Below, piece by piece: positions 1 to 85 of a DNA stretch of 8,259 nt. The notes beneath the pieces were generated by a model. The model ran no database searches, was not told where the DNA came from, and worked only from the letters and a program-made list of their open reading frames with translations. Numbering within the stretch: position 1 is the first letter of the stretch; every line of letters starts with the position of its first letter. The stretch is from a virus. Lineage: Duplodnaviria > Heunggongvirae > Uroviricota > Caudoviricetes. The translations under genes and the position numbers were made by a program. The DNA is taken from IMG/VR virus record IMGVR_UViG_2695420676_000017. The stretch is one strand, 5' to 3'.

Positions 1-85
1 TTTTCTTGTTCATTAAGTCACCTGTTTTGTGTTGTGGTGAGAATATCACCTTTCATCAGGTGGCCAAATTTAGTGTGCCACTACA
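1..85 (-). mobile_element. Terminal fragment of an IS3-family-like insertion sequence (terminal repeat plus SD and start of orfA); body of the element would lie beyond the left window edge
   Basis: Bases 1-85 are identical to 3569-3653. On the minus strand the block begins 5'-TGTAGTGG (IS3-family ends start with TG) and contains AGGTGA-n4-ATG AAC AAG AAA. The right copy continues as [13 protein letters not shown], which fits the conserved OrfA N-terminus pattern of IS3/IS911-type elements (recalled from memory, not searched). The left copy is cut by the window edge. Confidence 0.5.

Follow-up and report, generated by a model that had tools for sequence, protein, structure and literature searches.

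A repeated IS3-family end in a tail-fibre inversion locus beside ssrA very probably represents two contig-end stubs in a gapped draft scaffold

The stretch of DNA analysed here (8,259 nt; referred to as the window) corresponds to bases 2-8260 of the 31,651-bp draft contig CYDJ01000039.1 (GCA_001284985.1, locus L024). It contains a prophage remnant adjoining ssrA, the classical integration site, and its features are listed in table 1. At its left edge lies the end of an insertion sequence (IS), inside which the annotated start codon of the baseplate gene ymfQ falls. The region downstream is occupied by the tail-fibre gene S (649-1410, annotated as 'phage tail protein'), by alternative tail-fibre cassettes with their assembly chaperone (tfa) genes, by a second complete S gene in the opposite orientation, by a second end of the same IS and by an invertase gene, which is annotated as pinE and is identical to the pin gene at the ssrA locus of strain 602687.

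Table 1. Features of the 8,259-nt window, with the basis of each assignment.
Feature	Coordinates	Strand	Basis
IS end, bases 85 to 1: IRL, Shine-Dalgarno sequence and first 13 nt of orfA	1-85	-	identical to IS bases 1-85 of the L001 copy
ymfQ, Mu gp48-like baseplate gene	73-645	+	Pfam PF10076, 8.7e-27
Tail-fibre gene S: constant part Sc (649 to ~937) fused at pix1 to variable cassette Sv1	649-1410	+	PF07484 collar domain
pix1, 26-bp crossover site CTCTCGAAAACC TT GGTTTGGGAGAA	926-951	+	resembles published consensus
tfa1, assembly chaperone for Sv1	1407-2012	+	PF02413, 1.1e-31
tfa2, assembly chaperone for Sv2	1984-2427	-	PF02413, 6.4e-27
Sv2, alternative tail-fibre C-terminal cassette	2430-2870	-	ORF and comparison
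Second complete S gene, Sc + Sv2	2430-3173	-	ORF list and Pfam
Right arm of 672-bp inverted repeat	2870-3541	-	inverted copy of 281-952
pix2, exact inverted copy of pix1 (Sv2-side and Sc-side halves)	2871-2896	-	sequence comparison
Inverted partial ymfQ	3177-3541	-	ORF list and Pfam
Scaffold gap, N shown as A	3542		deposited record
IS end, bases 111 to 1: second contig-end stub	3543-3653	-	identical to IS bases 1-111
tfa3-delta, 3' end replaced by IS tip	3624-4052	-	e14-type junction; C-terminus compared with tfa2
Sv3 cassette, gp53-like C-terminal domain	4073-4483	-	PF21882, 3.2e-13
pix3, pin-proximal crossover site, reverse complement of TTTTCATAAACG TT GGTTTGGGAGAA	4433-4458	-	sequence comparison
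pin, serine DNA invertase, ssrA-locus paralogue	4513-5067	+	PF00239, 1.5e-51; PF02796
tmRNA gene (ssrA)	7200-7562	-	tag ANDENYALAA
smpB	7777-8259	-	window gene

The recombinase domains of the pin product, the inverted 26-bp sites and the existence of two orientations identify the region as a tail-fibre system of the serine-invertase (Pin/Gin) kind. As in the segments served by Pin, Gin, Cin and Hin, such as P of e14 and G of Mu, the invertase gene adjoins a segment with two opposed Sv-tfa cassettes, the tail-fibre gene contains the crossover sites and relatives differ in the orientation of the segment. Unlike e14, which is integrated at icd, the locus in the window belongs to an IS-truncated prophage remnant at ssrA, and it further differs from the known invertible segments in its third cassette and second constant region, both of which hinge on a gapped scaffold, as discussed below. 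The invertase crossover-site consensus used for comparison is that quoted in PMC4134206. The crossover sites have in common the half facing Sv (GGTTTGGGAGAA) and the TT at the centre, and they differ in the outer half, which reads CTCTCGAAAACC towards Sc and TTTTCATAAACG towards pin; base 2885, within pix2, is G in the window, and the pin-proximal site of 602687 has C instead.

Between pin and ssrA there are three further genes, at 5266-5478 (+), 5563-5907 (-) and 5959-6990 (-), which code for proteins of 70, 114 and 343 aa, respectively. Searches of Pfam, NCBIfam and PADLOC returned no match for any of the three proteins, and the sole match of the 343-aa protein was phrog_6191, which is of unknown function. 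Relatives with this ssrA locus, among them two intact prophages (L007 and L014), have kept the three genes beside pin, and the genes may represent prophage cargo. A GC-rich hairpin followed by a run of T (aaaaagcccgcaatttgcgggcttctttc) is located at 7040-7075, past the upstream end of the gene for the 343-aa protein and on its ssrA side.

The feature that drew attention to the window is an 85-bp direct repeat, and positions 1-85 and 3569-3653 are indeed 100% identical, exactly as the original prediction had it; about 2e-44 such pairs would be expected by chance in 8.3 kb. The minus strand of the repeat begins with TGTAGTGGCAC and carries AGGTGA, followed by ATG and the 13-residue start of OrfA, so that the TG start, Shine-Dalgarno sequence, start codon and OrfA-like N-terminus read from it previously all recur in the minus-strand sequence and its translation. 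Sequence comparison located a full copy of the element, 1258 bp in length, at L001 2501-3758. Its ends are imperfect terminal inverted repeats of the form 5'-TG...CA-3' (TGTAGTGG..TTGGCCAC), with the left repeat (IRL) reading TGTAGTGGCACACTAAATTTGGCCACC and the reverse complement of the right one (IRR) reading TGTAGTGGTCAAGTAATATTGGCCACG. The element has two overlapping ORFs with an A6G slippery site at IS base 333, and its full copies are labelled in RefSeq as 'IS3 family transposase, programmed frameshift'. Pfam assigns the HTH_Tnp_1 domain to the 103-aa OrfA and HTH_21/rve/rve_3/rve_2 (DDE/rve) to the 248-aa OrfB; OrfA by itself matches NF033516 at 1.5e-13, which does not attain the cutoff set for the whole protein, nor would a fragment be expected to do so. 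The copy in L001 is a simple insertion flanked by a 3-bp target duplication (AGC/AGC), and both hallmarks that had been proposed as checks, the other inverted repeat and a target duplication, are accordingly found in the full element.

The attribution of the repeat to the end of an IS3-family element is thus upheld by the annotation of the full copies, the termini, the A6G motif and the 3-bp target duplication. The same features (termini, ORFs, A6G and 3-bp duplication) are those of elements of the IS3/IS911 type, which make OrfA and, by a -1 frameshift, OrfAB, and the left end of the 1258-bp element presumably resembles that of IS911. Set against the IS3-family insertion sequences, the element displays no unusual feature, and it is an ordinary member of the family on every defining feature tested. 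A search for an ISfinder name through plasmid annotation and protein-cluster names yielded the generic label 'IS3 family transposase' only. Of the 5,426 complete E. coli genomes, 2,088 contain the IS end (111-112 nt), at up to 16 places per genome (median two); matches of the right copy in these genomes always lie under features annotated as 'IS3 family transposase'. The full element is also found in 630 plasmid records, and its many near-identical copies within and between genomes speak for mobility.

Both copies in the window, read on the minus strand, correspond to IS bases 1-85, and the right one runs on to IS base 111, the IRL end thus being present from 85 to 1 and from 3653 to 3543. On the left, the deposited contig ends one base beyond the window edge, at IS base 86. 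The suspicion that an intact IS may lie just upstream of the left copy agrees with the situation in complete genomes from this lineage, three of which (602687, CD45 and PS1Thumoskin9) have an intact 1258-bp IS at this very site; the minus-strand gene that runs off the left edge is a transposase gene and not a phage gene. The right copy had been described as only about 102 bp long; it actually comprises 111 nt of the IS, and its inner end coincides with a gap in the scaffold.

The arrangement of the window can be understood by comparison with strain 602687 (NZ_CP189657), which contains two relevant loci. Locus A, at ssrA, consists of ypjA', a full IS, ymfQ, S, tfa1, tfa2, Sv2 and pinE, followed by the same three unnamed genes and ssrA; it has a single copy of Sc, and the third cassette is absent. 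Locus B, the prophage e14 at icd, consists of tail terminator', a full IS, tfa3-delta, Sv3, pinE and mcrA. Base-by-base mapping matched window positions 1-2889 to locus A with three mismatches, 2870-3541 to an exact inverted copy of the part of locus A extending from ymfQ base 281 through Sc to pix, 3543-4503 to locus B bar one base (and to the e14 copy of the sister draft GCA_001284765.1 exactly), and 4422-8259 to locus A exactly. Both outer borders of the extra DNA are located at crossover sites, and its single irregular join lies in the interior, where IS base 111 meets base 281 of ymfQ. The junction between the IS and tfa3 occurs in 110 blocks of the collection, with an e14 context in the matches listed, bar the window's own contig. 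The IS/tfa3 junction of the right copy is, to judge from this sequence context, inherited from e14 and not a product of a local event.

Sc is likewise single in four long assemblies from this lineage. Of these, 602687 has the segment in one orientation, and CD45, PS1Thumoskin9 and L008, which carry the same IS-truncated locus, have it in the other. The inversion is therefore active or recent, given this one-to-three split of orientations. The join of Sv2, pix and Sc that the right arm contains is that of the alternative orientation of the segment; in many assemblies, including CD45, PS1Thumoskin9 and L008, it constitutes an intact S gene of 247 aa.

The nature of the irregular join is revealed by the deposited record, to which an exact match of the window's Sv3 protein variant led and which differs from the window at one position only: base 3542, given as A in the window, is N in the record (contig base 3543). 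This N sits exactly between IS base 111 and base 281 of the inverted ymfQ, and there is no other N within the first 10.4 kb of CYDJ01000039.1. We take a lone N between unrelated sequences to be the placeholder that a scaffolder or gap-filler leaves for an unclosed gap, as is the behaviour of SSPACE and GapFiller. GapFiller extends the edges of a gap base by base, and the gaps that stay open are mainly those in repeats (PMC3446322). Given the position of the N, the window is therefore two contigs joined across one unclosed gap, each running into the multicopy IS: one (contig Y) corresponds to positions 1-3541 and ends 86 nt inside one IS copy, and the other (contig X) begins at 3543 and ends 111 nt inside another. 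Contigs of the sister drafts L020-L022 likewise break just inside the same IS. A de Bruijn assembler run with k = 87 leaves an 86-nt overhang at a repeat, and we infer that the draft was made with Velvet at k of about 87, followed by SSPACE and GapFiller. In the pipeline combining these three programs, k is set to 66-90% of the read length, and the authors describe the tools as 'greedy... can lead to false joins' (PMC5320598).

The junction of IS base 111 with ymfQ base 281 was found in none of the 5,426 complete E. coli genomes, and it was also absent, with the filler base or a wildcard at the N, from the GTDB representatives and the JGI metagenomes. The window also contains an apparent in-frame fusion of OrfA residues 1-13 to YmfQ (3177-3617 (-), 134/146 aa), which is not real, because the ORF spans the N. 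A lookup of the exact OrfA-YmfQ fusion protein found it not to be on record, although L024 lists a 134-aa gene there; the product of L024 likely carries an X at the N. As the right copy ends at the N, it is not a truncated relic; the contig simply breaks off at that point. A genuine illegitimate junction between these IS and ymfQ bases had also been considered, but neither it nor the models built upon it were needed after the N had come to light; these models were Pin integration of a pix-bearing circle, fold-back template switching, tandem duplication with inversions and capture of an excised e14 circle.

The IS has nevertheless left its mark on both loci of the lineage. The two full copies in 602687 (L004 11429-12686 and L003 7854-9111) have no target duplications, their flanking triplets being GGA/GTG and GCG/AGG, and each joins unrelated DNA (ypjA'/IS/ymfQ and tail terminator'/IS/tfa3, respectively). 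Each of them therefore lies where prophage genes were lost in an IS-associated deletion or rearrangement; such joints are routine for IS3-family elements. At the ssrA locus, the IS takes the place of the initial 7-8 codons of ymfQ and of all that preceded them, and ypjA' lies on its other side; comparison with the intact prophage L007 places the ymfQ breakpoint within window positions 82-85, where it is ambiguous, TACA being common to both sides. In e14, it stands in place of the 3' end of tfa3 together with the tail genes as far back as the one for the tail terminator. The idea that the two copies in 602687 are reciprocal products of one IS-IS exchange was rejected, as the flanking triplets do not pair. 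In GCA_001284765.1 (L023 6903-8080), the far side of the e14 IS is occupied by type VI secretion genes (TssF) and not by the tail terminator gene; either the IS drove several rearrangements in the lineage or the drafts were mis-scaffolded across it.

These joints are relevant to the original prediction that the rearrangement was IS-mediated. On this view, transposition or recombination by the IS would have made the duplication and left a truncated copy of about 100 bp as the scar, and the borders of the event would be marked by the two direct IS ends. Such a history would agree with the two identical IS ends in direct orientation, with the tie between the IS copies of the lineage and rearrangements, seen in the 602687 joints devoid of target duplications, and with the type VI secretion genes beyond the e14 IS in L023. 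However, a transposase acts at the IS termini and not at an internal base such as 111, the right copy has neither the right inverted repeat nor a target duplication, and what appeared as its truncation point is the N. In addition, the arms of the duplication (281-952 and 2870-3541) are inverted with respect to each other and neither of them abuts an IS terminus; they are bounded instead by the gap at one end and by pix sites at the other. The joint between the IS and tfa3, finally, is older than the assembly and belongs to e14. We thus consider this origin of the duplication highly improbable: the IS did not create the apparent duplication and was involved in two older events only.

What has to be explained is a perfect inverted repeat of 672 bp, with arms at 281-952 and 2870-3541, the right of which starts at pix2 and stops exactly at the gap. 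In our opinion the direct repeat is very likely a pair of contig-end stubs of a known multicopy IS, the window being a gapped scaffold of two contigs and the duplication a product of assembly. Assemblers unable to cross a multicopy repeat of 1.26 kb would yield contigs that stop just inside the IS, and two such contigs placed one after another would look like an 'exact direct repeat' whose second copy is tiny. Contig Y starts inside the IS copy that truncates ymfQ in the prophage remnant beside ssrA, and contig X starts inside a copy that truncates tfa3, a joint that in all relatives is that of e14 at icd. If the Pin-invertible segment (953-2870) was present in both orientations within the culture, extension beyond the crossover site would read the flank of the flipped state (Sc and ymfQ) in reverse up to the gap. 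The right arm would thus probably represent this flank, carried into the gap by extension, and the genome itself would have no second copy.

The ingredients of this scenario have precedents. Clonal E. coli cultures contain both orientations of the e14 segment (PMC4272514), and Forde et al. found about half of the reads in the alternative orientation and noted that merging sequence from the alternative orientation creates 'artefactual duplications in phage regions' (PMC4134206). On the proposed reading, the window resembles the artefacts described by these authors in having a duplication from the alternative orientation at an invertible tail-fibre region. It would differ from them in that the artefact is one of a short-read scaffold, masked since the N of the gap appears as an ordinary base.

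One part of the window fits less easily into the proposed assembly origin. In contig X, the e14-type Sv3 is joined to the ssrA-type pin in continuous sequence. The switch between the two types occurs within 4422-4503, an 82-bp stretch that is identical in both loci and includes the crossover site; the nearest discriminating bases are 4421 and 4504, and linking them needs 84 nt. If k was 87, and hence longer than these 84 nt, reads span the join, and a read-spanned join of Sv3 to the ssrA-type pin is not predicted by a pure artefact model. The adjacency of Sv3, pix and the locus A pin was found in none of the 5,426 complete genomes, and in the other assemblies examined Sv3 lies beside e14-type pin bases or beside a pin that is a mosaic of the A and B types. 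Identity between the two pin paralogues, that of the ssrA locus and that of e14, is about 97%, and some stretches of 81-131 bp are free of differences. Two metagenome scaffolds have a mosaic pin of this kind, with Sv3 and mcrA as its neighbours, and the pin type switches at the ends of two short contigs (mosaics and switches come from L022, L028, L030 and L032). These mosaics may reflect either gene conversion between the prophage invertase genes or recurrent assembly chimeras; occurring in short-read assemblies, mosaics and end-of-contig switches indicate that the pin paralogue pair is prone to chimeric joins.

The continuous Sv3-pin join is one of the points in favour of an alternative in which the scaffold is essentially right and the ssrA locus really has three cassettes, the gap merely hiding a junction between the IS and ymfQ'. 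A unit of 1.56 kb (Sv3, tfa3-delta, an IS stub or IS, ymfQ' and Sc) would have been inserted at the pin-proximal site by Pin-mediated or homologous exchange with e14. Such an insertion is in line with the outer borders of the unit, which coincide with crossover sites and show the exchange of half-sites expected of site-specific recombination, and also with the continuity of Sv3, pix and the ssrA-type pin within contig X over a distance (84 nt) shorter than the inferred k of 87. The fact that the scaffolder linked the two contigs means that some read pairs connect them. It is known that a Pin paralogue can work in trans upon the segment of a different prophage (PMC12529663), and trans action of Pin-family invertases on the sites of other prophages is also described in PMC4134206; Pin-mediated or homologous exchange between two prophages is thus plausible but not radical. 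Against a real locus stand the N at the internal junction, the lack of both this junction and the Sv3-pix-pin adjacency among the 5,426 complete genomes, the e14-type or mosaic pin beside Sv3 in every other assembly examined, the chimera-prone behaviour of the pin paralogues in other short-read assemblies, and the 100% identity of the Sc arms over 672 bp, with the right arm stopping at the gap. We therefore regard a real three-cassette locus as unlikely. A genuine join between the e14-type cassette and the ssrA-type pin, made by Pin recombination between sites of two prophages some 1.65 Mb apart, is similarly doubtful; if true, it would represent either a large chromosomal inversion or the passage of a tail-fibre cassette from the invertible system of one prophage to that of the other, giving a three-cassette locus.

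The assembly origin, which we prefer, has a practical side. A masked N can mimic a truncated mobile element, an in-frame fusion of OrfA and YmfQ and a perfect inverted duplication of 672 bp, and windows taken from draft assemblies should retain or flag their Ns, above all in the vicinity of IS elements and of phage segments that invert. As for its biology, the feature is already known, being a common IS3-family element, widespread in E. coli, that lies in a known kind of inversion locus, and the biological weight of the repeat is accordingly small: it is made up of an ordinary IS and belongs to a known prophage tail-fibre system.
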